DNA of 45,506 nucleotides from a virus (taxonomy: Duplodnaviria; Heunggongvirae; Uroviricota; Caudoviricetes), in IMG/VR virus record IMGVR_UViG_2563366923_000008, positions 1 to 45,506 of that record, one strand, 5' to 3'. Positions 2,835-26,466 of this stretch are shown piece after piece. Both the position numbers and the translations under genes were made by a program. Numbering within the stretch: position 1 is the stretch's first letter; each line of letters starts with the position of its first letter. A model generated the notes under the pieces. The model did not search any database, was not told the DNA's origin, and worked only from the letters and a program-made list of their open reading frames with translations.

Positions 2835-5800
2835 TTATGCCTGAGTACGCAGCGCTTCAAGGCGGCGCAGGTCGAAGTCGTTCAGTTCGTCGGTGTAGTC
2901 AGCAGTGATTGGCGCTGGCCATTCACCTGTGTCGAATCCGGTTGCGATATTGCGCATCGCTTTGCGGTACTCGAGCATACCCAGCTCCAGTAGTTCAGCG
3001 GATGCCTCGATGATGGCGATCCAGTGGTAGTTCTCGTCTTTGTTGACGAAAATCCAGAAGAACTGATCCAGCGCTGCGGTTTCGCAGTACATAGCCGCGC
3101 TCAGGTGATAATCACGTTCAATAATTTCCCGGTGTAGCCTGGCGCGCAGGCTTTCCTGCTTAACATTCCACATGCTGATGGTTTTCAGGTCTGCACCTAT
3201 ACGCACGCCATCCAGGTCGATCTCAAGGTCAGGGCGCACACGAACTTCCAAGCCCGTCTCCTCGTCAAAACCAAAGTAGCTCACCTCAACGGCTCGGCTA
3301 GGGTGGGTCAGCAGCATGCCGGCGGTCGGGTGTGCCAGAAGCGCTTTTTGAATATTCAGCGCGGTGCTCAGCTGCTGGCGGGTGACCAGCACTTTTCCTT
3401 CCGGGTTATCGCGCCAGGCATCCAGCAGTTCGTCGGCAAATACGGCATCTGGTTTGACTGCCTTCACGGCCTGGATCATGTCTGCTTTGGTACCGGACAC
3501 TTTCAGTGGTGCCGGTTTCTGTGCTTCCTGAGCCACAAGGTCAGGGTTGATGATTGCCAACTGCTCCAGCAGCGCGTCACGGCTGCCGCTGGTTTTAACC
3601 GGCGGCGGCAGGGTGGCGTTGTACTCTTTAATGCATGCCTTCATTGCCGTCGCCGTCTGCTTCTGGTCACCATCAATACGCTGGAAGTCAGCTGGCAGCG
3701 CCATATAGTTCTGTGCCGTTTCTTCCAGGTTAGCGCCAAGCGGAACCTGCGGCGGCAGGGTGGCGTTGTACTCTTCCAGTAACACCTTGATGTCGTCGGC
3801 AGACAGCAGCGCCGGCAGGCTGGCATTGTGCTCATCGATAAAGGCGCGCAGGGTCGCGGCCGTTGTGAATGCGCCTTCAGGGATCACCGGTTCAACGCTG
3901 AATTCTGCGTCCAGTAGTTCAGGCTGCAACGCCAGCGCATGCACCAAGTTGCCCATGTCCAGCACCGCTGAGCGCTCTTTGACGATGGTTTTCTCTACGT
4001 GGCGCGCATTGAAGTACATCAGCGAAACGCGCGCATCTTTCACCTGGGTTGAGCTGATGCCGTTGGCGGCGTGGTAAACCTCGTTTGGCAGCCCTTCATA
4101 GCGGCCTGGCTCGAAATAAGCGGGATAAACAACAGCTGGTTCGTCAGATTGCGCTTCTGGCTCGGTTTGTGCTGCAACTGGTTCGGTTTGGCTTACAGAA
4201 TCGCTATTTTTGGCGACAGAATCCGTATTCTGGTCTACATCGTCCTTCTGGCTGGTATCTGACTCTTCACCAGACTCCAGACTGCTTTCGCCTGGCTGTA
4301 CTTCATCACCAGCTTGTTTTTCATCACTGACAGTTTCTTGAACCTGCACATTGCTGGTGGTCTCCGTAGCCTTTTTCGTGCCATGAGTTGCTGAGTTCTG
4401 CAGCAAAGCCGTAACGTCGAATATTCCGTTGCCGACATTTTTAACCAGTTCTTGTTCGACTTTCTGCGGTTGTGCTGCCGCTTCCTCTGCGCGGCGGCGT
4501 GCTCCTTCTTCACGCACGCGTTGCAGGTTCTCTTCGTGAGTGCAGAAGGATTTGCGCGGAGACTCCTTACCTTCAGGTTGGGGAATTTCCTGTGCTGCGG
4601 GTTCAGTCTCATGCAACGGCAATAACTCGACCGCGGAATTGAACGCGGCTGTCATGGTCTGGTTAACAAATTCCAGGTGAGCGACAGGAGTTAAATGAAT
4701 ATTTTCCGGTGCGATACGTACCAGGTTAAAAATAGCCGTGCGGTTAACACCCAGAACGCCTGGCTGATTGCGCAGGATGTTGCTCCATGATTTCCATGGT
4801 TCTTCTTTTTTGGTCACGATTTCTTTAGCGCGACGAAGAATGCTGCCCGGGATCTCGAAGTGGTTGAAGTCCATAGGCAGAAGGGCACACGCAATCTCTA
4901 AATCGAGAGTGTCCAGTGTGTGGTGTGCGTCAGGTCCACGGTCAGTGACGTAACCGCCGTCGGCATTAGTGCCGGAATCAGTACGCTGCACACTACTGAT
5001 GCGATTACCGGCGGCCCATTCGCGAACGAGGATACCGCGGTCGATGTGATCTGTAGCGAACCACAATTTCAAAAACTGGATTAAGGTTGCGAGTTCAGGG
5101 ATTTTTCCATCGACAGGGAAGACTTTCTTAACGGCATTCACGACTTTATGAATATCGTGCTCAATGGCTTTTTTGAATGCTTCCACATTCTCAGCTGCCA
5201 GCAGCAGGTTCTGGACGTACGCGTCATCGGTGTCCATCTCAAGGCGGACAATCTCATTTTTCTGCCCTGCGTCGATGTGATAGAGATATTCACCATCACC
5301 GATGAACTGAGCCAGTACGCGCTGGCGGAATGGCAGGGTGGCAACAACGATCAGGTTCGGTTGCTGTGTCTGCTGGGATTGCTCTTCGGTATCGACTTCA
5401 CCATCAACGACGCCACCTTCTGCCCGGCCGTTCTCGTCGGTCTGGATACCGTCCTCAACAGTGAGATCTTGACCCGTTGTAACGTCAGCAGCGTTGCTGG
5501 TTTCAGTTTTGAGCAACTGCAACTTACCACTGCGCCAGTCTTCTACCAGTTGATTGCGGTCACCGGCATCGGTGTTCACCCAGTCAGACATGAATGCAGC
5601 GATCAATCTTGGTTCGTGCTCTTCGTCTGGTGTGAAAATGTCCTTAACCGCCCGAATCATTTTCCACTCAGCATTCAGGCTGAGTTTGGCGGTCGCGGGC
5701 ACATCGTTCCTTGCCACAAGCAGGCTATGGAGATATGTATTGCCTTCATCTAGTGACATTTCGCTGGCAGCCAACTGCTGCTCTTTAGTGACGTGGGTTT

Positions 5801-15102: not shown

Positions 15103-15192
15103 TTGTCCATTGATTTATAAGCATCAGCCATCCATAATTACTTGGTCAGTCTGGACAACTGACAACTTTACCCCGGCGCCAAGTGGGGACAC

Positions 15193-15789
15193 ATGGCGCA
15201 AACACTGCAATTTGAGAAAAGTTATCAAAACGTACTGATTCCCGCAGAGCCGGGAACCAGCGAATACCTGCAACTTATCCCCGTAGGGCAACTGCTTTGC
15301 GGTGAGTTCCGCAAGCCCAGGAATTACGCATTCCACAAGAAGTTCTTCAAACTTCTGACTCTCGGGTATCACTACTGGACGCCTTCCGGTGGTCTCATTG
15401 AGCCCGCGGAGCGTACCCTCATATCCGGTTTTATCGACTTTCTCTCATCCGACCTCGATCAGCGCGCTGCACTCCAGAATGCCGCGGAGATGTATCTCTC
15501 CTCGGTCGGTATATCCCGTTCCCGCGATATGGCGCTGCTGAAACACTTCGAATCCTTCCGCGAGTGGGCAACCATTCAGGCTGGCTTTTATGACGAATAC
15601 CAGATGCCTGACGGCAGCCGTCGTCGTGTCGCAAAGTCGATCTCCTTCGCCAGCATGGACGACAGCCAGTTTAACGGCGTCTACAAATCAGTGCTGAATG
15701 TGCTTTGGAACTACATTCTGCGTCGCAAGTTCCACTCGCCGGCTGAGGCTGAAAACGCCGCCAGTCAGCTGCTGAGCTTTGCGGGGTGA
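15193..15789 (+). CDS. Nin-region hypothetical protein
   Basis: 198 aa; sits where ybcN/ninB-type genes lie in DLP12-like nin regions; family not verified. Confidence 0.55.
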   Translation: MAQTLQFEKSYQNVLIPAEPGTSEYLQLIPVGQLLCGEFRKPRNYAFHKKFFKLLTLGYHYWTPSGGLIEPAERTLISGFIDFLSSDLDQRAALQNAAEMYLSSVGISRSRDMALLKHFESFREWATIQAGFYDEYQMPDGSRRRVAKSISFASMDDSQFNGVYKSVLNVLWNYILRRKFHSPAEAENAASQLLSFAG

Positions 15790-15995
15790 TGGCGATGAAA
15801 TACTCATGGTTCCAGCATCCCGACTGCACAACCGAGCAGGCCGAACAGTTAGTGTCCAGATATCAGGCGCGAGGCATTGTCACAGAGAAAAGCCTTAACG
15901 CGGATTATCTGAGTTGGACGGTCAGCGCCCGGCTGCCGGTTTGTGTTCGCCCGGAGCATACTCCGCGATCACTTCGTCAACGTATATGGGGGTGA
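15789..15995 (+). CDS. Hypothetical small protein
   Basis: ATG overlapping the upstream stop (track start 15786 is GTG). Confidence 0.4.
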   Translation: MAMKYSWFQHPDCTTEQAEQLVSRYQARGIVTEKSLNADYLSWTVSARLPVCVRPEHTPRSLRQRIWG

Positions 15996-15997
15996 GC

Positions 15998-16288
15998 ATG
16001 GCCAATCTTCGTAAAGCAGCTCGCGGTCGTGAATGCCAGGTTCGCATCCCGGGCGTCTGCAACGGCAACCCTGAAACCACGGTATTGGCCCATATCCGCA
16101 TTGCTGGATTGTGCGGGACGGGGATTAAGCCGCCTGATCTGCTCGCCGCTATCGCCTGTTCATCCTGTCACGATGAAATAGACCGCCGCACGCGCCTGGT
16201 AGATGCGGAGTATGCGAAGGAGTGCGCGCTGGAGGGAATGGCCAGAACGCAGGTTATCTGGATGAAAGAGGGGTTGATAAAAGCATGA
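15998..16288 (+). CDS. YbcO-like small Cys-rich protein (putative nuclease family)
   Basis: [34 protein letters not shown]...[11 protein letters not shown]; lies directly upstream of rusA as in DLP12. Confidence 0.6.
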
Positions 16289-16647
16289 AACAATATCGCA
16301 TTTCATTACCCTGGCCGCCAAGCAACAACCGCTACTACCGGCACAACCGGGGACGCACACACATCAGCGCGGAAGGGCAGGCATACCGCGACAGCGTCGC
16401 CAGAATCATCAAAGACTCGATGCTTGATATCGGCCTGGCCACGCCATTGAAAATCCGTATTGAGTGTCACATGCCGGATCGCCGGCGCCGTGACCTGGAC
16501 AATCTGCAAAAGGCAGCATTCGACGCCCTGACGAAATCGGGTTTCTGGCTCGATGACCAGCAGGTTGACTACTACAGCGTGAAGAGAATGCCTGTCGTCA
16601 AAGGTGGGCGGCTTGAGCTAACCATTACTGAAATGGAGTCCGCATGA
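16285..16647 (+). CDS. rusA: Holliday-junction resolvase RusA
   Basis: [42 protein letters not shown]...[19 protein letters not shown]...[10 protein letters not shown] is near-identical in pattern to E. coli RusA. Confidence 0.85.
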
Positions 16648-16784
16648 GCCGTGACGTTATCGAACGCATCCGCGACCGCTGGCAAAAGCTTCGCCTCCTG
16701 CGTAGCCGCGGCACCGTGCTGGTCGACTACAAAATATTACGCAATTTCGTCCGTATCTATAAGCGCCTGGGAGAAGCAGCATGA
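16644..16784 (+). CDS. Small protein (46 aa), YlcG-like position
   Basis: ATGA overlaps at both ends (rusA stop and Q start); [46 protein letters not shown]. Confidence 0.35.
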
Positions 16785-17470
16785 CAGCTCAATACTTGGA
16801 ATTTGTTCGCCAGCAGCTGATAGTGGCCACCGCCGATCTGAGTGGTGCGACGAAAGGGCAACTGGTAGCTTTTGCAGAGAACGCGCAATTTACCGCTACG
16901 GCGCGCAGCCGTGGCCGGAAGAAGGTGTATAGCGAGGTGAAGCAAAAAATGGTTAACCCGGATGGACCGCCGATGAGCGGCAGCCAGTCCCGCGCTAAGG
17001 GTTCCTCAATCGCTCTCGTTCTGCCCGTTGAATACTCGACAGCCAGCTGGCGCCGCGCCCTCCTGTCGCTGGAAGACCACCAGAAATCCTGGTTGCTGTG
17101 GAACTACAGCGACAATATCCGCTTTGAGTATCAGGTAGCGATAACACAGTGGGCATGGGAAGAATTCCGTGATCAACTCGGCGCTAAGAAAGTGGCCGGC
17201 AAGACGATGGAGCGGCTGAAGAAACTGATATGGCTGGCGGCACAGGACGTGAAAGCAGAGCTGGCGGGTAAGTATGTATATCAGCACCAGGACCTTGCAG
17301 CCCTGTGTGGCGTTAAGCCTGATAACTGGTGCCATAACTACGCTGATTACTGGCGGGCTATGTGCGCCATTTTTAAGCGGCTTGATAGCGACTCTCTTCT
17401 CTGTGCTGTGAGAACACGATCACAACAAAAAGCGACTTTTTCGCAGCAGGGTCTTGCAAAAGTCAATTAA
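16781..17470 (+). CDS. Putative late antiterminator Q
   Basis: 229 aa directly upstream of the PR'/tR' region and lysis cassette; call is mainly positional. Confidence 0.6.
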   Translation: MTAQYLEFVRQQLIVATADLSGATKGQLVAFAENAQFTATARSRGRKKVYSEVKQKMVNPDGPPMSGSQSRAKGSSIALVLPVEYSTASWRRALLSLEDHQKSWLLWNYSDNIRFEYQVAITQWAWEEFRDQLGAKKVAGKTMERLKKLIWLAAQDVKAELAGKYVYQHQDLAALCGVKPDNWCHNYADYWRAMCAIFKRLDSDSLLCAVRTRSQQKATFSQQGLAKVN

Positions 17471-17559
17471 ATACGTCATATTTGAGTCTACTTTGATATG
17501 CTGCCTTAACTTTAAGTGGCGGCATGAAGATGATAGTCATATACCAGTTTGTAAAATTA

Positions 17560-17586
17560 GCCTCGGCAATCCGCCGGGGCTTTTTT
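17560..17586 (+). terminator. Rho-independent terminator downstream of Q
   Basis: GCCUCGG-caauccg-CCGGGGC (one G-U pair) followed by UUUUUU. Confidence 0.4.
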
Positions 17587-17723
17587 ATGCCTGCGATCCG
17601 GTCAGGGCTCTTGGGTAGAGACGTGCTGCACGACACGTCAAAGCCCTTCCGCGCAGAGCCCTGAACCAGATTGAAGTTACTCAGCAATAAGAAAACTGCA
17701 TGTCATCATTTGCTTATATCTTA

Positions 17724-17753
17724 TTGACCAGAAAATTAACATGTTGTTAATCT
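17724..17753 (+). promoter_or_regulatory. Candidate late promoter PR'
   Basis: TTGACC (17724-17729), 18-nt spacer, TAATCT (17748-17753). Confidence 0.45.
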
Positions 17754-17759
17754 ATTCGT

Positions 17760-17923
17760 GTGGTGAATCCCCCTATGCGGAGGGGCGACCAGTCAAACTT
17801 TTTTGTCCAGGTTTGTTTGCGCGGAACTAGTCGGCTGGGGCTGTTCCACCGGGAGGCACCCGGCGCCACCTCCTTGACGGTATTGTTATTTTTCATGCCT
17901 GTTCGTCCGAGCAGGCTTTTTTT
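17760..17923 (+). ncRNA. Putative short PR'-initiated, tR'-terminated transcript (lambda 6S RNA analogue, Q-modification target)
   Basis: Promoter at 17724-17753 and strong terminator GCCTG-ttcgtccgag-CAGGC plus T7 at 17897-17923; no convincing ORF between them. Confidence 0.3.
17897..17923 (+). terminator. tR'-like Rho-independent terminator
   Basis: GCCTGttcgtccgagCAGGC followed by TTTTTTT. Confidence 0.55.
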
Positions 17924-18332
17924 GCCCGCATTATCTTCATTGAAAACTGGCAACTCAGAGAATCATCCAAATTAAAAAAGCAGCAACGAGAGCGATTACT
18001 AATACATTCTTCGCTTTTTCTCTTCTGCTGGCCTTCACAAAAGGATTCACTATCCGGCAGTGGCTACACACAAGTGATTCTGGGTTAATTAACTTTCCGC
18101 AGTAGGGGCAGGGCTTGATAATCATTGGTACTAATTAAGTTGTGAGAACGTAGTCTCATTTAACCACATTTATCGAGTTGTTTTACTAATGGTCTAGTTA
18201 TTTCAGACATATTCATCAATTTCAGGCTCACGGGAATCATCCGCTACGTGCTTTGTTGATAAATCCAGCCCGTGAAGCCTGACCCTTTTCAAACACACAC
18301 ACAGCGCCATCCGAAAAATCGGAGGTGAGGCT

Positions 18333-18610
18333 ATGACCAGAATGAGCACCATTTACAGCAGACTTTCATATGGAACAGGAACCACGCTGACCGCTGCGGT
18401 GTATCAGCGAAGGCATATGCCGAAACAGCTAAAACAGCAAAAGAGGTGTCCTGGATGTTGGCCGACAGAATTGCAGGGTTAAGCCTGAGCGACTGGGCAA
18501 TTATTGTCGGTATCGCATGCACTGTTATTACCTGTGCAGTGAACTGGTATTTCCGCTGGAAAGAACGGGAGGATCGGCGCAATGGCTATGCCACCAAAGC
18601 TGAAGAATAG
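18333..18610 (+). pseudogene. Pinholin (S21-like class II holin) interrupted by a 47-nt insertion, leaving two small ORFs (18333..18482 and 18455..18610)
   Basis: Frame A gives MTRMSTIYSRLSYGTGTTLTAAVY... (SAR/TMD1-like); frame B gives [42 protein letters not shown]... (TMD2 plus basic tail); deleting 18405-18451 restores one S21-like frame. Confidence 0.5.
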
Positions 18611-19154
18611 CGTTATTGCAGCGATACCCGCTGGCGCTATTGCTATCGCTGCGGCGTTGATTACTGGCCCAACGGGTAATGATGGCCTTGAAGGTGTACG
18701 CTATCAGCCTTATCGGGATGTTGTTGGAGTGTGGACTGTATGCTGGGGCCATACTGGTAAAGATATTATCCTCGGCAAGACCTACACCAAAGCAGAGTGC
18801 CAGGCGCTGCTGGATAAAGACCTGAATATTGTCGCCCGACAGATTAACCCATATATCAATGCTCCGATCCCCGAAACGATGAGAGGGGCGCTGTACTCAT
18901 TTGCGTATAACGTAGGCGCGGGAAACTTCAAAACCTCCACACTGTTACGAAAAATCAACCAGGGTGATTCGAAAGGCGCATGCGAACAACTGCGGCGCTG
19001 GATCTATGCTGGTGACAAACAGTGGAAGGGTTTAATCACGAGGCGTGAGATTGAGCGTGAAGTTTGCCTGTGGGCAGAGAAACCTCAGGTTCTGGGGGAT
19101 GGACTCGGGCCGCTTAACCCTGGCATTCCGGTATCAGTTCCGGGGGTATTCTGA
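18582..19154 (+). CDS. SAR endolysin (GH24 lysozyme with N-terminal signal-anchor-release domain)
   Basis: N-terminal [26 protein letters not shown] then [19 protein letters not shown]...[13 protein letters not shown]; near-colinear with phage 21 R from memory; start may be ATG 18588. Confidence 0.85.
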
Positions 19155-19696
19155 TGAAACCCAGAAAAATTACGATTGTTGCGGTTCTGCTGGTGGCTGT
19201 CGTAATCATTATTGCAGTGCTTAGCGTATTACTGGTTCGTAGCCGCTCAGCTCTTGAAACAGAACAGAGTGAGAATCGGGTATTACGTAATGATAACGCG
19301 CTGCAGGCGACGGTGATAACTACACAGGCTTTCAACTTCAATCGGTTTAACCAGATAGCAGAGAACGCCAACCGCCTTAACTCGCTGATCGATGCCGGTA
19401 CTGAGAAAACTGTCATCGAATACCGGGAGATTCTCCGACGTGAAAAGACCTGTGATCTGCCTGTTCCTGCTGATGTCGCTGGTGGGCTGCTCAAATACGC
19501 GTACCGTTTACGTGCCAGCGCAATGCACCCCGATACCGGGAACACTAACGCAACCGATGATAGTACCGCTGCCGCCAGCTCAATGACGTATTGCCAGGCC
19601 GTCCTCTGGATTGAACCTTTGCTGGCAACGATAGAAAAGGGTAATGGCAATTTTTCCGGAATACGGGAAATAGAGAACGTAAGAGCCTCGCAATAG
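19154..19696 (+). CDS. Rz-like i-spanin
   Basis: 180 aa with N-terminal TM helix (IVAVLLVAVVIIIAVLSVLLV) and coiled-coil periplasmic domain; embedded +1-frame lipoprotein ORF. Confidence 0.75.
   Translation: MKPRKITIVAVLLVAVVIIIAVLSVLLVRSRSALETEQSENRVLRNDNALQATVITTQAFNFNRFNQIAENANRLNSLIDAGTEKTVIEYREILRREKTCDLPVPADVAGGLLKYAYRLRASAMHPDTGNTNATDDSTAAASSMTYCQAVLWIEPLLATIEKGNGNFSGIREIENVRASQ
19392..19586 (+). CDS. Rz1-like o-spanin lipoprotein embedded in Rz
   Basis: Lipobox LVGC followed by a Pro-rich mature peptide CSNTRTVYVPAQCTPIPGTLTQPMIVPLPPAQ; start uncertain (ATG 19392 or GTG 19440). Confidence 0.6.
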   Translation: MPVLRKLSSNTGRFSDVKRPVICLFLLMSLVGCSNTRTVYVPAQCTPIPGTLTQPMIVPLPPAQ

Positions 19697-19726
19697 CGGG
19701 GTTCTTTAACAATAAGAGAGGGAGTA

Positions 19727-20020
19727 ATGGAAAAAGAACAAAACGGCGCTGCAATCTTTCCTGTAGCAAAAGACTTTAAATTCTGTCTTGGGCAACTAGT
19801 GAACTTGCGCATTAGTGATGAGTTCGGCGAGGTACAGGCCCGCTCCCAGCATGTGACAGGTGAGAACCAGTACTTTATTTACTACCAGGCCGCCAATAAA
19901 TGTGCGACTGAGCGCTGGTATTCCGAATCGCAACTGGTAGCGGTGGAAGATGACCGTTCTCCGGGTATGCCTGTCTTTGGTTGTGTTGAGTTGCCGGAAG
20001 GTGCGGCGGTTGAAGAGTAA
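19727..20020 (+). CDS. Hypothetical protein
   Basis: 97 aa, good RBS. Confidence 0.5.
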   Translation: MEKEQNGAAIFPVAKDFKFCLGQLVNLRISDEFGEVQARSQHVTGENQYFIYYQAANKCATERWYSESQLVAVEDDRSPGMPVFGCVELPEGAAVEE

Positions 20021-20148
20021 GGCATTACAGCAGGCATTCACTGAGTGCCTGCGACAAAGCTAAATGGCATCAAGCATGCGATGATGATTGATTAATAATT
20101 GAGCTATGCATGGTATAATAAGCCACATTCATTGAAAGGTTAACCACC

Positions 20149-20313
20149 ATGTCATTTTTCGATTATGCAATGCAGCGTGTTGGGCTTGCAGCCAATACGA
20201 CTGTCATGTGCCCGATATGCGGACATAAATCCACACACTCGACCACGAAAGTACGCCAACAACAGGCGTTACTTTGCCCTAAATGTAAATCTCTGTTTGT
20301 CATTCACAGGTAG
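20149..20313 (+). CDS. Small zinc-ribbon protein (54 aa), stand-alone moron
   Basis: MSFFDYAMQRVGLAANTTVMCPICGHKSTHSTTKVRQQQALLCPKCKSLFVIHR; own extended -10 promoter (TGgTATAAT 20111-20119) and a perfect terminator. Confidence 0.5.
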   Translation: MSFFDYAMQRVGLAANTTVMCPICGHKSTHSTTKVRQQQALLCPKCKSLFVIHR

Positions 20314-20338
20314 TGGGTCGCGATACAAATAACCCCAG

Positions 20339-20362
20339 GCCTCGCAATTGCGAGGCTTTTTT
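20339..20362 (+). terminator. Rho-independent terminator of the zinc-ribbon moron
   Basis: GCCTCGCAATTGCGAGGC followed by TTTTTT. Confidence 0.6.
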
Positions 20363-20505
20363 ATACCAGCAGTAAACGCGCATCTCACGCGCATATTAAC
20401 GAGAGCCTTTCAGTAAGCGAGCCTGAGAAATGCCGTTATAGGTGGCGACCTCTCTCGGGCGGCTTTTCTGTGAGACAGGCTCACTTTCTAAAAGGTAAAG
20501 ACGCT

Positions 20506-21003
20506 ATGAAAGCAATCACGCTTTTTAATACACCGATCCGTGTTGATGAATCAGGAATGATCTGCCTCACTGATATGTGGAAAGCCAGTGGTAAAAGTGA
20601 ATCTGAATCTCCGTACCACTACCTGCGAAACAAGCAGACCAAAGAGTTCTTAGCCGAGCTGGAGAAAAACCACGAATCTGTGGTTTTTACTGAGCGCGGT
20701 GTACACGGTGGAACATATGGCGGGAAGTTTGTTGCTTACGATTATGCGGCTTGGTTAAACCCCGGGTTCAAGTACGCGGCCTATAAAGTCCTCGATGACT
20801 ACTTCACTGGAGAACTTCAGCATCGCAACAGCTTAAGTGCGCAGCTCAACATGAAATGTCATGAGTTTGACCAGAAGAAAGACATGGCGAGCTTCTGCGG
20901 ACAAGGGCTGGCGGCATGGCGCTATACGAAGCCAGTGTTGGTCGCTGAGATTAACTCCCTGGCTAACCAGCTGCAGATTACGATCCCCGGGCTTCCGGGA
21001 TGA
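20506..21003 (+). CDS. KilA-N domain protein (antirepressor-like)
   Basis: MKAITLFNTPIRVDESGMICLTDMWKASGKSESESPYHYLRNKQTKEFLAELEK fits the KilA-N pattern; track start 20470 is GTG, ATG at 20506 has a better RBS. Confidence 0.7.
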   Translation: MKAITLFNTPIRVDESGMICLTDMWKASGKSESESPYHYLRNKQTKEFLAELEKNHESVVFTERGVHGGTYGGKFVAYDYAAWLNPGFKYAAYKVLDDYFTGELQHRNSLSAQLNMKCHEFDQKKDMASFCGQGLAAWRYTKPVLVAEINSLANQLQITIPGLPG

Positions 21004-21257
21004 GTGATCGTGTCATTGAATGCGCCTCCAGAGCGGGGCGCGACTTCTCAGAGTTCATGAAAGGCGAGAAGGGCATGATGGAAGCATTGGCCTCGGTGGA
21101 TGAGTTTGGCGAGCAGCTGCGCCTCAACGGCTGTGTCAATCATCACTTTGTTAGCTACATGATGCGGAACTCGATCATGCAGGCATTCATGGACATGGCA
21201 AAAGCCGAGAGGAAAGAAGAGCGCCGGCGTAAGCGAGCGGAAGCAAAAGCGAAGTAG
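21000..21257 (+). CDS. Hypothetical protein translationally coupled to the KilA-N gene
   Basis: ATGA overlap; 85 aa with basic Lys/Arg/Glu-rich C-terminus. Confidence 0.5.
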   Translation: MSDRVIECASRAGRDFSEFMKGEKGMMEALASVDEFGEQLRLNGCVNHHFVSYMMRNSIMQAFMDMAKAERKEERRRKRAEAKAK

Positions 21258-21391
21258 CCATTACAAAGCTCATCTGCGGGTGGGCTTGATAATGGGGATG
21301 AATATCGCAATTTTTATTGTGGTTGACATAATTAGCTGATTTGCAATGATTATTTTGCTGTTGGTATAATTAATCCTCTACTACGAGAGGG

Positions 21392-21676
21392 ATGACTATG
21401 CTGACAATAATTTTGTTTGGTGCTGGCTGGAAAGGTGATGTTTGGGCTCTCGAGAGCTACAGTCCCGTTATTAAGGCTCCTGATCGGACATTTAGGCTTC
21501 TGAAAAGCTCTGGGGGTGCCCCGATCTTCGAGGATGCTGAGTTTGATGTTTTCGAATATCAGCTTGGTGATGAAATTTATCTGGTTGGCTGTCATGGGAA
21601 TAAGCCTAGTGACGATGTGATTATGTCACACATCCAGCATGGTGACCCTAAGCCGAAACCATACAAAACACTGTAA
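21392..21676 (+). CDS. Hypothetical protein (94 aa), stand-alone moron
   Basis: Own promoter TTGCAA-18 nt-TGgTATAAT (21341-21370), SD, and terminator. Confidence 0.55.
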   Translation: MTMLTIILFGAGWKGDVWALESYSPVIKAPDRTFRLLKSSGGAPIFEDAEFDVFEYQLGDEIYLVGCHGNKPSDDVIMSHIQHGDPKPKPYKTL

Positions 21677-21696
21677 CCGCCTCCGGGCGGTTTTTT
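21676..21696 (+). terminator. Rho-independent terminator of the 94-aa moron
   Basis: CCGCC-tccg-GGCGG followed by TTTTTT. Confidence 0.55.
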
Positions 21697-21786
21697 ATTG
21701 CCATCACCGAACAGGCATTACAGCAGGCATTCCCTGAGTGTCTGCGATAATGCTTTATTATCATTGTTAACGACGGGGTAAAAATC

Positions 21787-21984
21787 ATGAAAATTTTAGT
21801 TGAACACAACTCCAAAGTTATCTGGATGCGTGATAATGAAACATCTGAAGGTGTGGCCTGCAGGAGTTATATTAAGGACGGCGTACAGCAAAAGATTATT
21901 GCCGCCCTTGAGGATGCCTTAGCTCAGGCAAAGGGTGAGTTATTATGCTGGAATGACTCTGATGCTGTGAGTGACATTTCCTGA
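21787..21984 (+). CDS. Hypothetical small protein
   Basis: 65 aa ORF with plausible RBS. Confidence 0.4.
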   Translation: MKILVEHNSKVIWMRDNETSEGVACRSYIKDGVQQKIIAALEDALAQAKGELLCWNDSDAVSDIS

Positions 21985-22023
21985 GCCACCACCTAAATCA
22001 ATCGTAACGTTCCAGTATCCCAT

Positions 22024-22278
22024 ATGAGGCGCAACCAACCGGGTCGGAAGTCTCTCGAAGAAACCACCACCACCATGATGATGAAAACCCCGGTTATTTT
22101 TATAACTATTGAAGTTACTGTCGGTAGTGAGAAGGATGTTGCACTGGTGCGAGCAGTCAACAACAACGACATCACCTGCATTCAGGTGCATTCGTTTGTG
22201 AAGAAATTGCATAAGTCTCCTTATCAAGAGGCAATCAGCACTCCTCTCAAGGCTGGTACGCCAACGTCCCACCGCTGA
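22024..22278 (+). CDS. Hypothetical small protein
   Basis: 84 aa ORF; start uncertain. Confidence 0.3.
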   Translation: MRRNQPGRKSLEETTTTMMMKTPVIFITIEVTVGSEKDVALVRAVNNNDITCIQVHSFVKKLHKSPYQEAISTPLKAGTPTSHR

Positions 22279-22380
22279 CGGGCTGAGCCATTACCTTACC
22301 CAGACTCAACGATAAGTAACATCCTGATATTCAGACAGTAACTGTAATCGATAATGCTGAAGAATAGGCAGTAAATACAG

Positions 22381-23028
22381 GTGACTGATATGGCAACACT
22401 GAAGGATTTATCAAACCAGTTAAAGCAACTGCAAAAGCAAATCCCGTTTGCCACAGCTCAGGCGATGACAAAAGTTGTACGCCAGATTGAGTTGGCTCAG
22501 AAGACGGCATTCGAACGACATCTGGAGAGCCCCACGCCGTTTACCGTTAAATCAGTTGGTTCGGTGGCGGCAAGAAAGAACAATCTGACCGCAAAGGTTT
22601 TTGTCCGCGATACCGCTGCTGGTTATCTGGAACCATTCGAGTTTGGCGGAGAGCACAAGCTCAATAGCCAGGCTCTATTAAATCCCAAGAACGTTAAGCT
22701 AAACAAATACGGCAACATGCCGCGTAATAAGCTCTCACAGCTTAAAACAAAGGAAAATGTATTCGTAGGTGAGGTTGATGGCGTTAACGCTGTCTGGCAG
22801 CGTAAGAAGCCGATGAAAGCTAAGAAGCGACGGGCCAAACGTTCCGCTAACGGGACGCGAAGACCGAAACGCAAACAGCGTTCTCCAAAGCTTTTGATCC
22901 GGTTTGGTGATGCGCTACCTGTGACTCCAGTGCTGGGGTATATGGATAGGTCCCATACCATGGCGAACGCACTGCTACCGTCTGCTTTAAATCAGGCGAT
23001 AGCAGAAGCCATCAGGACGGCAAAATAA
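22381..23028 (+). CDS. Hypothetical protein with very basic C-terminal region
   Basis: 215 aa; KKPMKAKKRRAKRSANGTRRPKRKQRSPK tract suggests nucleic-acid binding. Confidence 0.5.
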   Translation: MTDMATLKDLSNQLKQLQKQIPFATAQAMTKVVRQIELAQKTAFERHLESPTPFTVKSVGSVAARKNNLTAKVFVRDTAAGYLEPFEFGGEHKLNSQALLNPKNVKLNKYGNMPRNKLSQLKTKENVFVGEVDGVNAVWQRKKPMKAKKRRAKRSANGTRRPKRKQRSPKLLIRFGDALPVTPVLGYMDRSHTMANALLPSALNQAIAEAIRTAK

Positions 23029-23038
23029 AAGCAGTAAC

Positions 23039-23542
23039 TTATAAGTTAATTTCGCAAGCTTTTATGAAGCTGTTTACTGCAGTTGTCGATCCAGAAACAT
23101 TGGCTGACATGGAATGCTGGTTTCCGCCATCCTTTGTTTGCACACCAACTAACACTTTGGATTTCGCCCCCTGAAGCTGCTTAAGCACTGTTTTTAGTTG
23201 GTCCGCGTCATCCGATTGAATCTGGAGGCTCTGAACATTACGTCTTGAAAGGGTAGCATCGAGCTTCACTGCGGTATTCCCGTCGACCTTCATTATCAGG
23301 TCCATTGGTACCTCTGATAGTGATTCGGTGCTTTTATCCATTTCAACGTATGCCGCCGATAGCTTTTCTTTAGTGCAGTCAAACACAATGGCGCCATTGT
23401 CGGATGAAACCTCGCCAAGCATCATTGCTTTCTTACCACCAGAGAAAAGGTCATCTTCAGTATTAGTTACCCACTGGGCATGAGCAATTGGTGATGCCAG
23501 CACTGCGGCTACGAAAGTTATTTTGATTATATTGTTACCCAT
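23039..23542 (-). CDS. Secreted or periplasmic protein of unknown function (opposite-strand moron)
   Basis: ATG at 23542 with AAGGAG SD at 6-nt spacing; signal peptide MGNNIIKITFVAAVLASPIAHA|QW; AT-rich; only minus-strand gene in the late region before the fibre switch. Confidence 0.6.
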   Translation of the reverse strand: MGNNIIKITFVAAVLASPIAHAQWVTNTEDDLFSGGKKAMMLGEVSSDNGAIVFDCTKEKLSAAYVEMDKSTESLSEVPMDLIMKVDGNTAVKLDATLSRRNVQSLQIQSDDADQLKTVLKQLQGAKSKVLVGVQTKDGGNQHSMSANVSGSTTAVNSFIKACEINL

Positions 23543-23685
23543 TACATTCTCCTTGTATTGAATAGGAATAATCATAGTCGGAGCGAATGGTCGAAGCCAT
23601 AAAAAAATGGGTCCTTCCTGAGACTTTTGTAAGGTACGGGCATTGCGCGCCGCGGTGTTTTCCTAGCTACAACTTTCAGATTTGT

Positions 23686-23832
23686 GTCCCATGTCCCACC
23701 TCTGGCGATCATTACGGACACCTCGCCAGCTCTGGCTATTCCAGTTTATTCCAGTGGGACATTCTGGTGGGACATGGCAAAAATGTCCCAGACGAATGTC
23801 CCACCCCAGAAAATGTCCCAGGTGATGTCCCA
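23686..23832. repeat. Array of ATGTCCCA / TGGGACAT repeats immediately upstream of and overlapping the terS start (candidate terminase-binding or cos/pac-associated sites)
   Basis: GTCCCA at 23686 and 23693; TGGGACAT at 23755 and 23768; ATGTCCCA at 23783, 23796, 23813 and 23825, the last overlapping the terS ATG. Confidence 0.6.
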
Positions 23833-24401
23833 TGACCACGATGAACCAGAGTCAGTACGCACAACATTCAGGTGTGGATCGCAAAACAATTGGCCGGTGG
23901 ATTAAAGCCGGGCGCTTCATTGTGATGGACGGAGACCTGATTGACGTAGAGGCCAGCGATGCGGCATTGAAGAAAAACCGCGATGGCAAAGACCCGCGTG
24001 CCTCGAACGCGAAGAAAAAGAAAACTCCCGTCGTTAGCGATAACGATGATGACGGTGATGAAATCAATAAAACTGTCCGCCAGATAATGCTCACTGAAGG
24101 GGCAGATCTTTCGAGAGAGGAAGCGGGACGTATCCGCGAGAATTACATGGCCCTACAGGCAAAGCTGCAGTATGAAAAAGACAGCGGCCAGCTTATTGAG
24201 CTGACAGCAGCCGAGGAGGTTTTATTCAACGCCTTTCGCCAACAGCGTGATGCCTGGCTTAACTGGCCGTCCAGGGTGGCGCCGCTAATGGCTGCTGATC
24301 TGGATGTACCGGCGGACAGGATGACAGAGGTGCTGATTGAACATGTCCACAAACACATCTCAGTCCTCGGAGAGCCAGAGTTTAACCCGGCAGAAGATTG
24401 A
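23832..24401 (+). CDS. Terminase small subunit (N-terminal HTH)
   Basis: 189 aa; N-terminal QYAQHSGVDRKTIGRWIKAG HTH; acidic linker; directly upstream of the large terminase. Confidence 0.7.
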   Translation: MTTMNQSQYAQHSGVDRKTIGRWIKAGRFIVMDGDLIDVEASDAALKKNRDGKDPRASNAKKKKTPVVSDNDDDGDEINKTVRQIMLTEGADLSREEAGRIRENYMALQAKLQYEKDSGQLIELTAAEEVLFNAFRQQRDAWLNWPSRVAPLMAADLDVPADRMTEVLIEHVHKHISVLGEPEFNPAED

Positions 24402-26466
24402 GCGTCTTGAATTAAGCGTCCGCAAAGGCTGGACACCCCCGCCGCGTATCAGTGTGCCGCAGTGGGCAGATGACTATCGTAAGCTGGCAAAAGAGGCTGG
24501 GAGCACTTCGGGAAACTGGGAAACATCGACGGTAGAAATTGCCCGCGGACCGATGCTTGCCGCGACGGAGTCCGGGGTTCATATCATCACTGTAATGTGC
24601 TGTACCCAGTTGATGAAGACAGCACTGCTGGAAAACCTTTTTGGCTATTTTGCCCACCTCGATCCTTGTCCGATACTGCTGCTGCAGCCGAAAGAAGAAG
24701 CCGCTGAACAGTTTTCGAAAGAGCGTATTAGCCCGCTGGTAAGGGTGACGCCGGTACTGCGTAAAATCATCGGTGATTCGAAACAGAAAAGCTCGAAAGA
24801 AACCATTCTTTACAAGGCATTCACTGGCGGATTTCTGGCGCTGGCGGGTGCTGGTAGCCCTGATAACCTTGCGCGTCGTCCGATTCGTGTCCTGCTGGCG
24901 GATGAAGTGGACAAGTACCCGATAACCCGCGAAGGCGATCCAATTGCGCTGGCCGAAGAGCGTACAGCGACATTTGGCCTGACCTGGCTGTCTGTACGCG
25001 CCTGTTCGCCGACGGTGGAGGATGAGAGCCGCATTGCTGACAGCTACGCCGACTCCGATCAGCGCCGGGCATCTGTGGTTTGCCCGCACTGTGGCCACCG
25101 CCAGTTCCCCGACTTTTTCAAACACGTTCAGTGGCCGAAAGAGGGAGATAAACACCTGACTAAATCGGCGATGCTCTATTGCGAATGCTGTGGTAGTGGC
25201 TGGTCCGAAGGACAGCGCCTCAGAGCTCTGCACACTATTCGATGGCATCAGACGCGCCCATTTGAGTGCTGCGGGGAGCGGCACTCACCGCTGATGGATT
25301 ATGACCTTGCCTGGCGGGCGGCAGACGAGGGCAGCGTTGAAAAGGTCTGGCAATGGTCAGAGTCGGAACGGCATGCGGTCTATCGCGCAATCTGCCCCTC
25401 CTGTGGAAAGGAGGCAGTCGATAACCACCACGCGGGGTACCAGGCATCCAAGCTTTTCAGCCCCTGGCAAAAAGATAAGCCGTCGGATATTGCGAAAAAA
25501 TATATCGATGCGAAGGGCGATCCGGATAAGGAACAGGCGTGGTGGAATACCCAGATGGGGCTTCCGCACCGACCTAATCATGGGAAACAGCTCCCTGTTG
25601 ATGTTCTGCTGGCGCGCCGGGAAATATTTCCGGCCGTCGTTCCGGACGGGGTGGCATTGTTAACAGCTGGAGTTGATACCCAGGACGATCGCTTCGAAAT
25701 TACGATCACCGGCTGGGGGAGAGATGAAGAATCGTGGTCGGTCGCGCATGACGTTATTTATGGTGACCTTGAGACGGAAGAACCCTGGAAGCGACTGGAT
25801 GCATACCTGAAACAGATCTGGCGACGTGGTGACGGGCGCGGCCTGAATATCATGGCAACGTGCATGGACTCCGGCGGCCACCATACGCAGAAGGTATACG
25901 AATTCGCCAAAGAGCGTCTTGGCCGTCGTGTCTGGGCAATTAAGGGGGAGTCTGCACAGGGAGGCAAACGCAATCCTGTCTGGCCGACCAAACGACCATC
26001 ATCGAAAAGCAAAGCCAGTTTCCGCCCTGTCATTCTGGGGGTTAACTCAGCGAAAGACGTGATACGCGGTCGCCTGCATCTTGAGCCACCCAAACCTGGC
26101 GCCGCCGCTGCGGGTTATATGCATTTTCCTGACGATCGCGATCTCGGGTACTTCAATCAGCTGCTGGCGGAGCGACTGGTTTACAAAGTCATTTCCGGGC
26201 AGCGGTACAGTATCTGGGAAGCAATACCAGGACGAGCTAACGAAGCGCTTGACTGCCTCGTTTACAGCTATGCCGCGCTGTGCGGTCTCAAACATATGGG
26301 GTTAAAACTCAACGTCCGGGCCGCCAACCTCGAAGCCGATCCGGATAAGTTCCTGCCAGCGCCAGTTGGACAGGAAGAAAAAATCAATTACGAGCTGCCG
26401 GGTGCGGTTATTGAAGAACCAGCGCCGGTCAAACGTAAGCGAATATCGCAACTCCTGCCGAAATAA
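24343..26466 (+). CDS. Terminase large subunit (lambda gpA family)
   Basis: About 700 aa with ATPase region (VLLADEVDKYP) and C-terminal nuclease; track start 24337 is TTG, ATG at 24343; overlaps terS. Confidence 0.85.
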   Translation: MSTNTSQSSESQSLTRQKIERLELSVRKGWTPPPRISVPQWADDYRKLAKEAGSTSGNWETSTVEIARGPMLAATESGVHIITVMCCTQLMKTALLENLFGYFAHLDPCPILLLQPKEEAAEQFSKERISPLVRVTPVLRKIIGDSKQKSSKETILYKAFTGGFLALAGAGSPDNLARRPIRVLLADEVDKYPITREGDPIALAEERTATFGLTWLSVRACSPTVEDESRIADSYADSDQRRASVVCPHCGHRQFPDFFKHVQWPKEGDKHLTKSAMLYCECCGSGWSEGQRLRALHTIRWHQTRPFECCGERHSPLMDYDLAWRAADEGSVEKVWQWSESERHAVYRAICPSCGKEAVDNHHAGYQASKLFSPWQKDKPSDIAKKYIDAKGDPDKEQAWWNTQMGLPHRPNHGKQLPVDVLLARREIFPAVVPDGVALLTAGVDTQDDRFEITITGWGRDEESWSVAHDVIYGDLETEEPWKRLDAYLKQIWRRGDGRGLNIMATCMDSGGHHTQKVYEFAKERLGRRVWAIKGESAQGGKRNPVWPTKRPSSKSKASFRPVILGVNSAKDVIRGRLHLEPPKPGAAAAGYMHFPDDRDLGYFNQLLAERLVYKVISGQRYSIWEAIPGRANEALDCLVYSYAALCGLKHMGLKLNVRAANLEADPDKFLPAPVGQEEKINYELPGAVIEEPAPVKRKRISQLLPK

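Follow-up and report, generated by a model that had tools for sequence, protein, structure and literature searches.

The product of the short gene at 20149-20313 of the window (the whole 45,506-nt stretch of viral DNA that was analysed) belongs to the YnfU family of zinc-binding proteins. By comparison with other genomes, the predicted promoter, the gene and the terminator form a genuine moron that was added to a lambdoid prophage behind the spanin gene, where relatives have the conserved post-lysis terminator. That the unit is a real moron and that its product belongs to the YnfU family is highly likely. The fuller account, which also takes in the working proposed below, is the best explanation overall and was given a probability of approximately 0.8, a figure weighted to the identity claim. 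As the family is a named one with an expressed founder, and as RefSeq gives the exact sequence the family name, the finding is correct but already known in kind. The features of the locus are as follows.

18582-19154: lysozyme gene.
19154-19696, plus strand: Rz-like spanin gene, the last of the lysis cassette (phrog_214, E 2e-55).
19727-20020, plus strand: accessory ORF of 97 aa without a promoter of its own (phrog_1935, E 2e-47), absent in E. coli G5 and phi80.
20021-20060, plus strand: linker hairpin, GGCATTACAG-CAGGCATTC-ACT-GAGTGCCTG-CGACAAAGC, conserved, and the left edge of the module in about one third of the related loci.
20088-20104, plus strand: A/T-rich -35 and proximal UP region, TTGATTAATAATTGAGC, conserved in most prophage copies.
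20111-20119, plus strand: predicted extended -10 element, TGgTATAAT (promoter scan and comparative conservation).
20134-20139, plus strand: Shine-Dalgarno sequence GAAAGG (read from the sequence), within a conserved leader of ~23 nt, CAYTCWTTGAAAGG.
20149-20313, plus strand: ynfU-family gene for a 54-aa, predicted Cys4 zinc-ribbon protein (Pfam, NCBIfam, dN/dS and RefSeq name).
20337-20364, plus strand: intrinsic terminator with a 9-pair stem, an AATT loop and six T (RNA folding, phi80 annotation and homology edges).
20506-21003, plus strand: KilA-N / ORF11CD3 gene, 3' of the terminator (Pfam), in a backbone common to many E. coli prophages.

The 54-aa reading frame with two cysteine pairs, as given in the original prediction, was confirmed at 20149-20313, and there is no alternative in-frame start upstream of the ATG at 20149. 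The product, MSFFDYAMQRVGLAANTTVMCPICGHKSTHSTTKVRQQQALLCPKCKSLFVIHR, carries the knuckles C21-P-I-C24 and C43-P-K-C46 (CPIC...CPKC). It has a mass of ~6 kDa, a pI of 9.7, a net charge of about +6 and no hydrophobic segment; the pI lies between 9.6 and 10.1 across the three YnfU subfamilies examined. Pfam PF23499 (YnfU) matches residues 18-50 with 32.3 bits against a gathering cut-off of 27 (E 9.5e-8), and NCBIfam NF038384 (zinc_YnfU_fam) matches with 72.9 bits against 36, aligning residues 1-53 with profile positions 1-51 of 52. YnfU alone passed its cut-off among the 25 best Pfam matches listed. Membership of the Lar and YacG families was not indicated by their Pfam models, both of which scored below cut-off (14.5 against 28.6 for Lar, and 13.8 against 25.5 for YacG).

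Searching the database brought up 16 close relatives, and a search with the profile gave 98, all of which carry either PF23499 or the YnfU name. The label 'YnfU family zinc-binding protein' is attached to nearly all of the relatives found, and where a source organism is given it is almost always a member of the Enterobacterales. An identical protein in an E. coli RefSeq genome is annotated under the same name, and the exact sequence is recorded in 323 blocks of the assembly collection. Strains of Citrobacter, Enterobacter and Klebsiella have the identical gene, and NCBI assembly GCA_000351325.1 contains DNA identical to that of the prophage. The gene has been overlooked by phage annotators, for example in Citrobacter phage Chris1; that it is often missed is a practical point for annotation.

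The reading frame is under purifying selection, as judged from 57 distinct 165-nt coding sequences in 127 fetched loci. The median dN/dS was 0.12 over 641 pairs, and the variable columns numbered 41/30/53 by codon position, with the third positions varying most. C21, P22, C24, C43, P44 and C46 were invariant or nearly so in 58 sequences. Conservation of the frame in related prophages, on which the original prediction had staked its claim, is borne out by this dN/dS and by the invariant zinc ligands. An Rfam scan of 19600-20600 gave a best score of 24.2 bits against a gathering score of 50, and all of the matches merely overlapped the terminator hairpin.

The gene order at the locus is Q antiterminator, holin, lysozyme, spanin, the 97-aa ORF, the ynfU unit, KilA-N, small genes and the large terminase subunit. 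From position 20339 onward, the window is 95-99% identical to many E. coli genomes. Two empty sites were identified. The prophage of E. coli G5, 99% identical to the window from 20339 and with nothing preceding the terminator, has the spanin gene, a terminator of the window type and the same KilA-N gene in succession; in phi80, Rz/Rz1 is followed by the same terminator and then the next gene. Compared to these two empty sites, the window carries an additional 640 bp. Citrobacter phage Chris1 and an E. coli prophage contain the stretch from 20040 to ~20310-20364 at 97-99% identity, between unrelated flanks. The module, of 270-320 bp, recurs at this level of identity in at least five unrelated prophage backbones. 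The exact protein is likewise present in at least five prophage backbones, which differ in their holins, endolysins and terminases, and in each its gene lies between those for lysis and packaging.

The edges of homology were located in 113 loci. Left edges clustered around the linker or the promoter, at 20020-20039 (n = 36), 20080-20099 (n = 45) and 20110-20129 (n = 23), and right edges at the stop codon (n = 67) and at the end of the terminator T-run (20360-20369, n = 41). Over 20000-20300 the GC content is 0.44, which differs little from the ~0.51 of the flanks; the lysis genes have 0.48-0.55, and the first part of the terminase genes has 0.50-0.56. Several prophages carry two YnfU paralogues, either on opposite strands or in tandem. 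The empty sites, the unrelated backbones and the sharp edges together support the autonomous promoter-gene-terminator unit that had been proposed for the late region.

The extended -10 promoter, TGgTATAAT, and the Shine-Dalgarno sequence of the original prediction are both present, at 20111-20119 and 20134-20139, and the GAAAGG of the latter is spaced 9 nt from the ATG. The parts of the promoter are a -35-like TTAATA (20092-20097), a 16-nt spacer, the TG at 20111-20112 and the TATAAT at 20114-20119, giving 10 of 12 consensus matches in the hexamers in addition to the extended -10 TG. Within the window, such matches were at chance level. There were 8 promoter-like sites within 4 kb against 5.0 ± 2.6 expected, and 6 terminator-like sites in the scan against 3.8 ± 2.2 expected; TGNTATAAT occurred in 3 copies against 0.99 expected, with 3 or more in 9 of 100 shuffles. 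The case for both elements was therefore made through comparison with other genomes.

The upstream sequences of 28 divergent, non-redundant representatives were aligned by the ATG. In 23 of the 28, the pattern TGnTAnnnT stood at one and the same distance from the ATG, which backs the predicted promoter; in 2 further representatives it was offset by 2-3 nt. In this alignment the -10 hexamer ended ~30 nt 5' of the ATG, and the sequence past about -65 was unrelated between lineages. The extended -10 has been retained even in lineages where, relative to the window, synonymous sites have reached saturation, and it is kept in all of the Buttiauxella copies examined, where the gene is chromosomal, alone and far from a late operon. 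The short leader with its Shine-Dalgarno sequence is also conserved across lineages, and most prophage copies have the consensus TTGrTTAAaAAwT at the -35 and proximal UP position. These comparisons argue strongly that the promoter is functional and moves along with the gene; the predicted transcription start is at ~20126.

The A/T-rich stretch at 20088-20104 may have the role of an UP element or an operator. A repressor might act on the promoter, which is without a good -35, by attaching to the -35 region, which is conserved and partly palindromic; the palindromic element was seen in several lineages and is absent from the window copy. A by-eye comparison of the promoter region with the Fur and Zur boxes showed no fit. 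The sequence at 20090-20104 may resemble the Fis core.

The terminator hairpin, AGGCCTCGC-AATT-GCGAGGCTT, occupies 20337-20358, with the six T at 20357-20362, and its predicted RNA folding energy is -15.7 kcal/mol (z -5.6). The 'perfect hairpin terminator' described earlier is there and very stable, with its T-run, but is not strictly perfect, as the stem consists of 7 Watson-Crick pairs plus a G.U and an A.U pair. The hairpin and T-run begin 23 nt 3' of the stop codon in the window, and 19-25 nt in most prophage copies. Two types of terminator are found behind the gene: type A, that of the window and of the phi80 post-lysis site, and type B, AACCGCCTnnGGGCGGTT followed by a T-run. The type A sequence is annotated in phi80 directly after Rz/Rz1, and is also present in many lambdoid phages without a ynfU-family gene. 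By this comparison, the terminator is a shared, exchangeable element of the backbone and is not private to the gene. With sequences diverging directly past the T-run, the terminator belongs to the functional unit, yet it is an interchangeable piece of the backbone. The unit had been called self-contained; it does hold a promoter, a gene and a terminator, but the last of these is common to phages that lack the gene.

In the window, as in 66 of 74 viral loci, the gene runs in the direction of the long ORFs around it. We infer that it is expressed in the lysogen, from the conservation of the promoter and, by analogy, from the detection of YnfU of E. coli K-12 in the uninduced Qin prophage. As the gene is co-oriented with the late operon, Q-dependent read-through should transcribe it too, and the earlier wording that it is expressed independently of Q is better taken to mean 'not dependent on Q'. 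While the prophage is repressed, the sigma-70 RNA polymerase of the host would initiate at ~20126 from the extended -10 promoter and terminate at the hairpin at ~20362, producing an RNA of ~240 nt. In the lytic cycle, polymerase that Q has modified would come from the late promoter and read through both gene and terminator. As comparison shows, the promoter, leader and gene move between backbones as one block, with the terminator being one of two exchangeable types.

An AlphaFold model of low confidence (mean pLDDT 62.9) has a helix at residues 3-14, strands at 16-20 and 27-31 and, on either side of the second knuckle, further short strands, a predicted secondary structure that would fit a zinc ribbon. 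A Foldseek search of this model against the PDB showed no significant match (E of 0.26 or above). The best of these non-significant matches (E 0.26-1.4) were to HVO_2753 and to archaeal ribosome-bound zinc-finger microproteins, with a TM of ~0.5 over 34-36 residues. A search of solved structures with the family profile had a best E of 0.016, and all of the matches were generic zinc knuckles. An exhaustive HMMER profile search of 1.8 billion representatives returned 138 proteins at E ≤ 0.001; the stronger matches were small YnfU-like proteins, and the weaker ones included longer proteins with repeated zinc-ribbon stretches. No link to a characterised family emerged among the matches that were scanned, and Pfam scans of ten distant HMMER matches gave YnfU or unnamed zinc ribbons. 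The homology and structure searches proposed in the original prediction thus differed in outcome: homology identified the YnfU family, which had been overlooked, and structure gave no significant fold match.

The PADLOC defence models gave no match to the protein at E ≤ 0.01, and in PHROGs it matched only a family without known function. No conserved neighbour or partner gene was identified in any prophage or chromosomal context examined. Single-gene copies are fixed in chromosomes outside prophages in Buttiauxella, Erwinia, Dickeya, Raoultella and one Klebsiella species. An MCP chemoreceptor gene, which adjoins the Buttiauxella and Erwinia copies, was considered as a functional partner and discounted; the Dickeya and Raoultella copies precede a giant GH94 gene, and the Klebsiella copies lie elsewhere.

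From its motifs, the ~6-kDa protein would fold as a zinc ribbon with an N-terminal helix and two beta-hairpins, each with a CPxC knuckle, and the four cysteines would hold one Zn2+. The basic charge, the lack of a partner and the fixed chromosomal copies favour a stand-alone factor acting on a general cellular component. Our best guess is that the protein would act alone on a component of the host, the likeliest target being RNA, DNA or a machine such as the ribosome or RNA polymerase, and that its role would be that of a host-physiology or lysogenic-conversion factor rather than a protein of the phage cycle. Binding to nucleic acid or to a machine that handles it is the action we tentatively propose, with low confidence, from charge and analogy.

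Two alternatives concern whether the gene is expressed as proposed, or is a gene at all. It could be a real gene that is a passenger of the late operon, expressed only in the Q-dependent late transcript, with the promoter-like sequence inactive or shut in the lysogen. Its co-orientation with the late genes, in the window and in the 66 of 74 viral loci, would fit this, as would the poor -35 and a promoter match that is within chance in the window. We nevertheless consider it quite unlikely. The extended -10 and leader are held at a fixed distance despite the saturated synonymous sites, and are kept in the stand-alone chromosomal copies that have no late operon. Other YnfU paralogues are antisense to the late operon and must have promoters of their own, and a terminator directly behind the gene is sensible only for a polymerase that is unmodified by Q. 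A small RNA or a chance ORF in place of a protein gene might be suspected where an ORF is so short and the annotators of Citrobacter phage Chris1 missed it. This reading is effectively already refuted by the dN/dS of 0.12 with its excess of variation at third codon positions, the invariant zinc ligands, the matches to curated family models, the lack of an Rfam match in the region scanned and the translation of a homologue.

The remaining alternatives to a host-directed, stand-alone factor concern what the protein does. Ogr/Delta are zinc-finger activators of P2/P4, and Com is a translational activator of Mu. A small DNA- or RNA-binding regulator of phage genes, similar to these, is an unlikely reading, despite the small, basic Cys4 zinc protein being encoded in a temperate phage and the partly palindromic element in its own -35 region in several lineages being a possible autoregulatory site. 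That palindrome is missing in the window copy, and neither Ogr/Delta nor Com was among the 25 best Pfam matches listed. The gene is dispensable, with closely related backbones lacking it; no fixed target gene accompanies it from one unrelated backbone to another; and it is fixed in bacterial chromosomes outside prophages. The lack of a hydrophobic segment and of a partner, the basic charge and the fixed single-gene copies argue against such a phage-specific regulator and against a toxin-antitoxin system. A toxin of a toxin-antitoxin or addiction module, one of the roles suggested originally, is very improbable and found no support. The protein is a small one from a prophage, and in some prophages lies near a gene that a database names 'GnsA/GnsB family addiction module toxin', but it is highly basic and soluble-looking, no conserved partner gene or antisense unit accompanies it in any context examined, the single-gene chromosomal copies are under purifying selection, and the K-12 homologue is present at readily detectable levels in growing cells. 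For a factor in defence, superinfection exclusion or anti-defence, there is the typical position beside other accessory genes, the neighbouring KilA-N protein with its weak match to a PADLOC candidate, and the frequency of such roles among morons expressed from prophages (the DicB paper). This too is improbable, and the anti-defence role that had been put forward gained no support: the protein itself is without a PADLOC match, its PHROG family is without known function, and its non-prophage chromosomal copies, fixed as single genes and under purifying selection in several genera, argue for a general cellular role. The basic charge, the lack of a partner and these fixed copies count weakly against a defence or anti-defence role.

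The linker hairpin at the left of the module has the general form of 40 nt GGCATTACAG-CAGGCATTC-ACT-GAGTGCCTG-YGATAATGC, and its outer right arm is degenerate in the 20021-20060 copy. The window holds two copies, at 20021-20060 and 21714-21753, with none expected by chance. The second follows another moron-like unit at 21341-21697, which consists of an extended -10, a 94-aa ORF and a type B terminator. There were 99 linker sites in 56 fetched loci, with unrelated sequence on either side, and the element is present, unannotated, in 35 phage records including phi80, ST64B, Fels-1 and phiP27. The folding of the plus-strand RNA is predicted at -19.7 kcal/mol (z -4.2). The element folds far better on the late-transcript strand than on the other, and on the former alone the mismatches are of G.U type. 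Covariation was modest, with one pair found as GC in 11, AU in 5 and GU in 5, and a score of 0.151 compared to 0.127 in shuffles. The linker may function as RNA, or may be no more than a patch for recombination between cassettes. As the element reads ...ALQQAFTECLRQS*, an origin as a relic of the 3' end of a spanin (Rz) gene was also considered, and was rejected, with none of the 99 copies in the 56 loci ending such a long ORF.

Taken jointly, the YnfU proteins might be Enterobacterales-specific, ribosome- or RNA-binding zinc microproteins spread by prophages as cassettes, with the linker a functional RNA of the late transcript. We regard this combined proposal as a long shot. If it were true, the YnfU cassettes would alter host translation or stress physiology, and the linker could be an RNase III-type processing site that doubles as a homology patch for moron exchange. 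Processing sites of the RNase III type lie between T7 genes. No description of a ribosome- or RNA-binding YnfU family, or of a functional linker RNA, was found in the searchable literature.

The unit is not a new kind of element, and its description settles no open question. It does provide a well-delimited example of a moron with comparative support for the promoter, and it places YnfU as widely exchanged prophage cargo, beyond one ribosome-profiling hit in E. coli K-12. As the family is kept under selection and is fixed in several chromosomes, functional studies of small prophage proteins could reasonably turn to it.

E. coli K-12 YnfU (b4776), the founder of the family, is encoded in the cryptic prophage Qin. 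Ribosome profiling led to its discovery, and a tagged form of the protein was detected under uninduced conditions. Its level was the highest among the newly found small proteins, and its pair of CPXC zinc knuckles was noted. It was confirmed as coding by a later genetic screen, PIRT-seq. No functional study of YnfU, of its family accessions or of zinc-ribbon morons was found in the literature, and we know of no demonstration of zinc binding by the K-12 protein. The curated models PF23499 and NF038384 place the K-12 and window proteins in the same family. Both are strongly basic proteins of 54-57 aa with two CPxC knuckles ~18 residues apart, and they share the conserved M1, S2, R10, S28, L41 and F50; both are encoded by single genes near the lysis cassette of lambdoid prophages, with no partner. 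However, they are only ~31% identical and belong to distinct subfamilies, with the N-termini MSFFDYAM in the window and MSERKNSK in K-12. The window gene lies 3' of the spanin gene and along the late operon, whereas that of K-12 is found between the genes for Q and the holin and runs against the late operon, and the upstream promoter sequences of the two differ. Expression has been shown for the K-12 protein only, and because of its ~31% identity, its different upstream sequence and its antisense orientation, that expression supports the family and not the promoter of the window.

The archaeal zinc-finger microproteins, including HVO_2753 and those that are ribosome-bound in 70S structures, are similar to the window protein in size, in the zinc-ribbon core and in being basic. 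The family description of HVO_2753 gives it two zinc-binding pockets. These microproteins have no detectable sequence relationship to the window protein; with the comparison resting on a low-confidence model and on non-significant matches, the likeness may be taken as a lead for mechanism, not as family membership. Lar of Rac and the YacG-type gyrase inhibitor are also short Cys4 zinc proteins, and some are prophage-borne; the window protein is a member of neither family.

Morons, in the sense of Juhala/Hendrix, are extra DNA with a promoter and terminator of their own and a differing GC content (reviewed in 'The moron comes of age', PMC3594210). Similar to the classical lambdoid morons (HK97 gene 15, and lambda bor and lom), the window unit is an addition between genes that adjoin each other in relatives, with a predicted promoter, a terminator and horizontal spread among unrelated backbones; its GC content differs little from that of the flanks. 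It is unlike the classical lambdoid morons in that its terminator is an element shared with the backbone, and in that the YnfU family also has copies fixed in chromosomes outside prophages.

The surroundings of the moron in the window contain the following features, all on the + strand:

19727-20020, +: accessory ORF of 97 aa (phrog_1935), directly 3' of the spanin gene
20021-20060 and 21714-21753, +: two copies of a 40-nt hairpin 'linker', recognised as conserved sequence
21341-21697, +: second moron-like unit, with promoter, ORF and terminator in series
21341-21370, +: putative promoter of this unit, TTGCAA-18 nt-TATAAT with TG, read from the sequence
21392-21676, +: its ORF of 94 aa (phrog_17438)
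21675-21697, +: its terminator, AACCGCCTCCGGGCGGTT plus a T-run, read from the sequence

The 40-nt consensus of the linker hairpin is GGCATTACAG-CAGGCATTC-ACT-GAGTGCCTG-YGATAATGC. The hairpin sits where accessory-gene cassettes join, and the sequence flanking it on either side is unrelated. The second window copy lies directly 3' of the second moron-like unit. It is present in phi80 (L003, 3190-3229) and in many further fetched loci. It occurs without annotation in 35 phage records, among them phi80, ST64B, Fels-1, phiP27, cdtI, mEp390, ZF40 and Klebsiella prophages. An Rfam scan of window 19600-20600 returned no family match for the hairpin. The mismatches are of the G.U type and folding is much better on the late-transcript strand, which suggests an RNA element; covariation was modest. 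Possible roles for the hairpin are RNA processing and service as a recombination patch, which one element could combine.

The 97-aa ORF is preceded by a good ribosome-binding site and lacks its own promoter. As it is missing from the arrangement in phi80 and the E. coli G5 prophage, it is another accessory gene, carried on the late transcript. The 94-aa ORF of the second unit had no match in Pfam or NCBIfam. The KilA-N / ORF11CD3 protein encoded 3' of the moron terminator (20506-21003, +) showed a weak match over a short stretch to the PADLOC candidate-defence model PDC-S22 (E 6.8e-9).

Window 15149-25313 is 100% identical to positions 4023267-4033431 of KB732580.1 (NCBI assembly GCA_000351325.1). 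The likely source of the window is this chromosome or an identical prophage. Citrobacter phage Chris1 (L001) carries ynfU at 3110-3274, with two amino-acid differences (protein about 96% identical), yet the gene is unannotated in the deposited genome. Annotation pipelines for phage records likely overlook ynfU.

Several prophages, and also a single chromosomal island in Dickeya, contain two YnfU-family paralogues, which are of different subfamilies and are placed either in tandem or on opposite strands. The pairs in the comparison loci were:

L002: 490-663 (-) with 3110-3274 (+)
L139: 4617-4814 with 5001-5165
L150: 2010-2177 with 3001-3171
L132-L136: also paired

Chromosomal copies outside prophages (L140-L148, L150-L158) are fixed single genes, among which no shared partner gene was found. 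In Buttiauxella and Erwinia their neighbours are chemoreceptor (MCP) genes; in a Klebsiella species they lie between a citrate synthase and an acetyltransferase gene. In Dickeya and Raoultella, the gene immediately 3' of the ynfU copy encodes a GH94 / glycoamylase protein of 2860 aa, which resembles a cyclic-glucan synthase.

In several lineages (loci L094, L106, L109 and L111), the conserved A/T-rich element at the ynfU -35 position (window 20088-20104) forms an inverted repeat with perfectly matching arms. The versions are TTGGTTA..TAACCAA, TTGATTAA..TTAATCAA, TCGATTA..TAATCGA and CGGTTA..TAACCG, the changes in one arm matching those in the other; the window copy has no palindrome. The element may act as an operator or as an UP element, and it may resemble the Fis core consensus.
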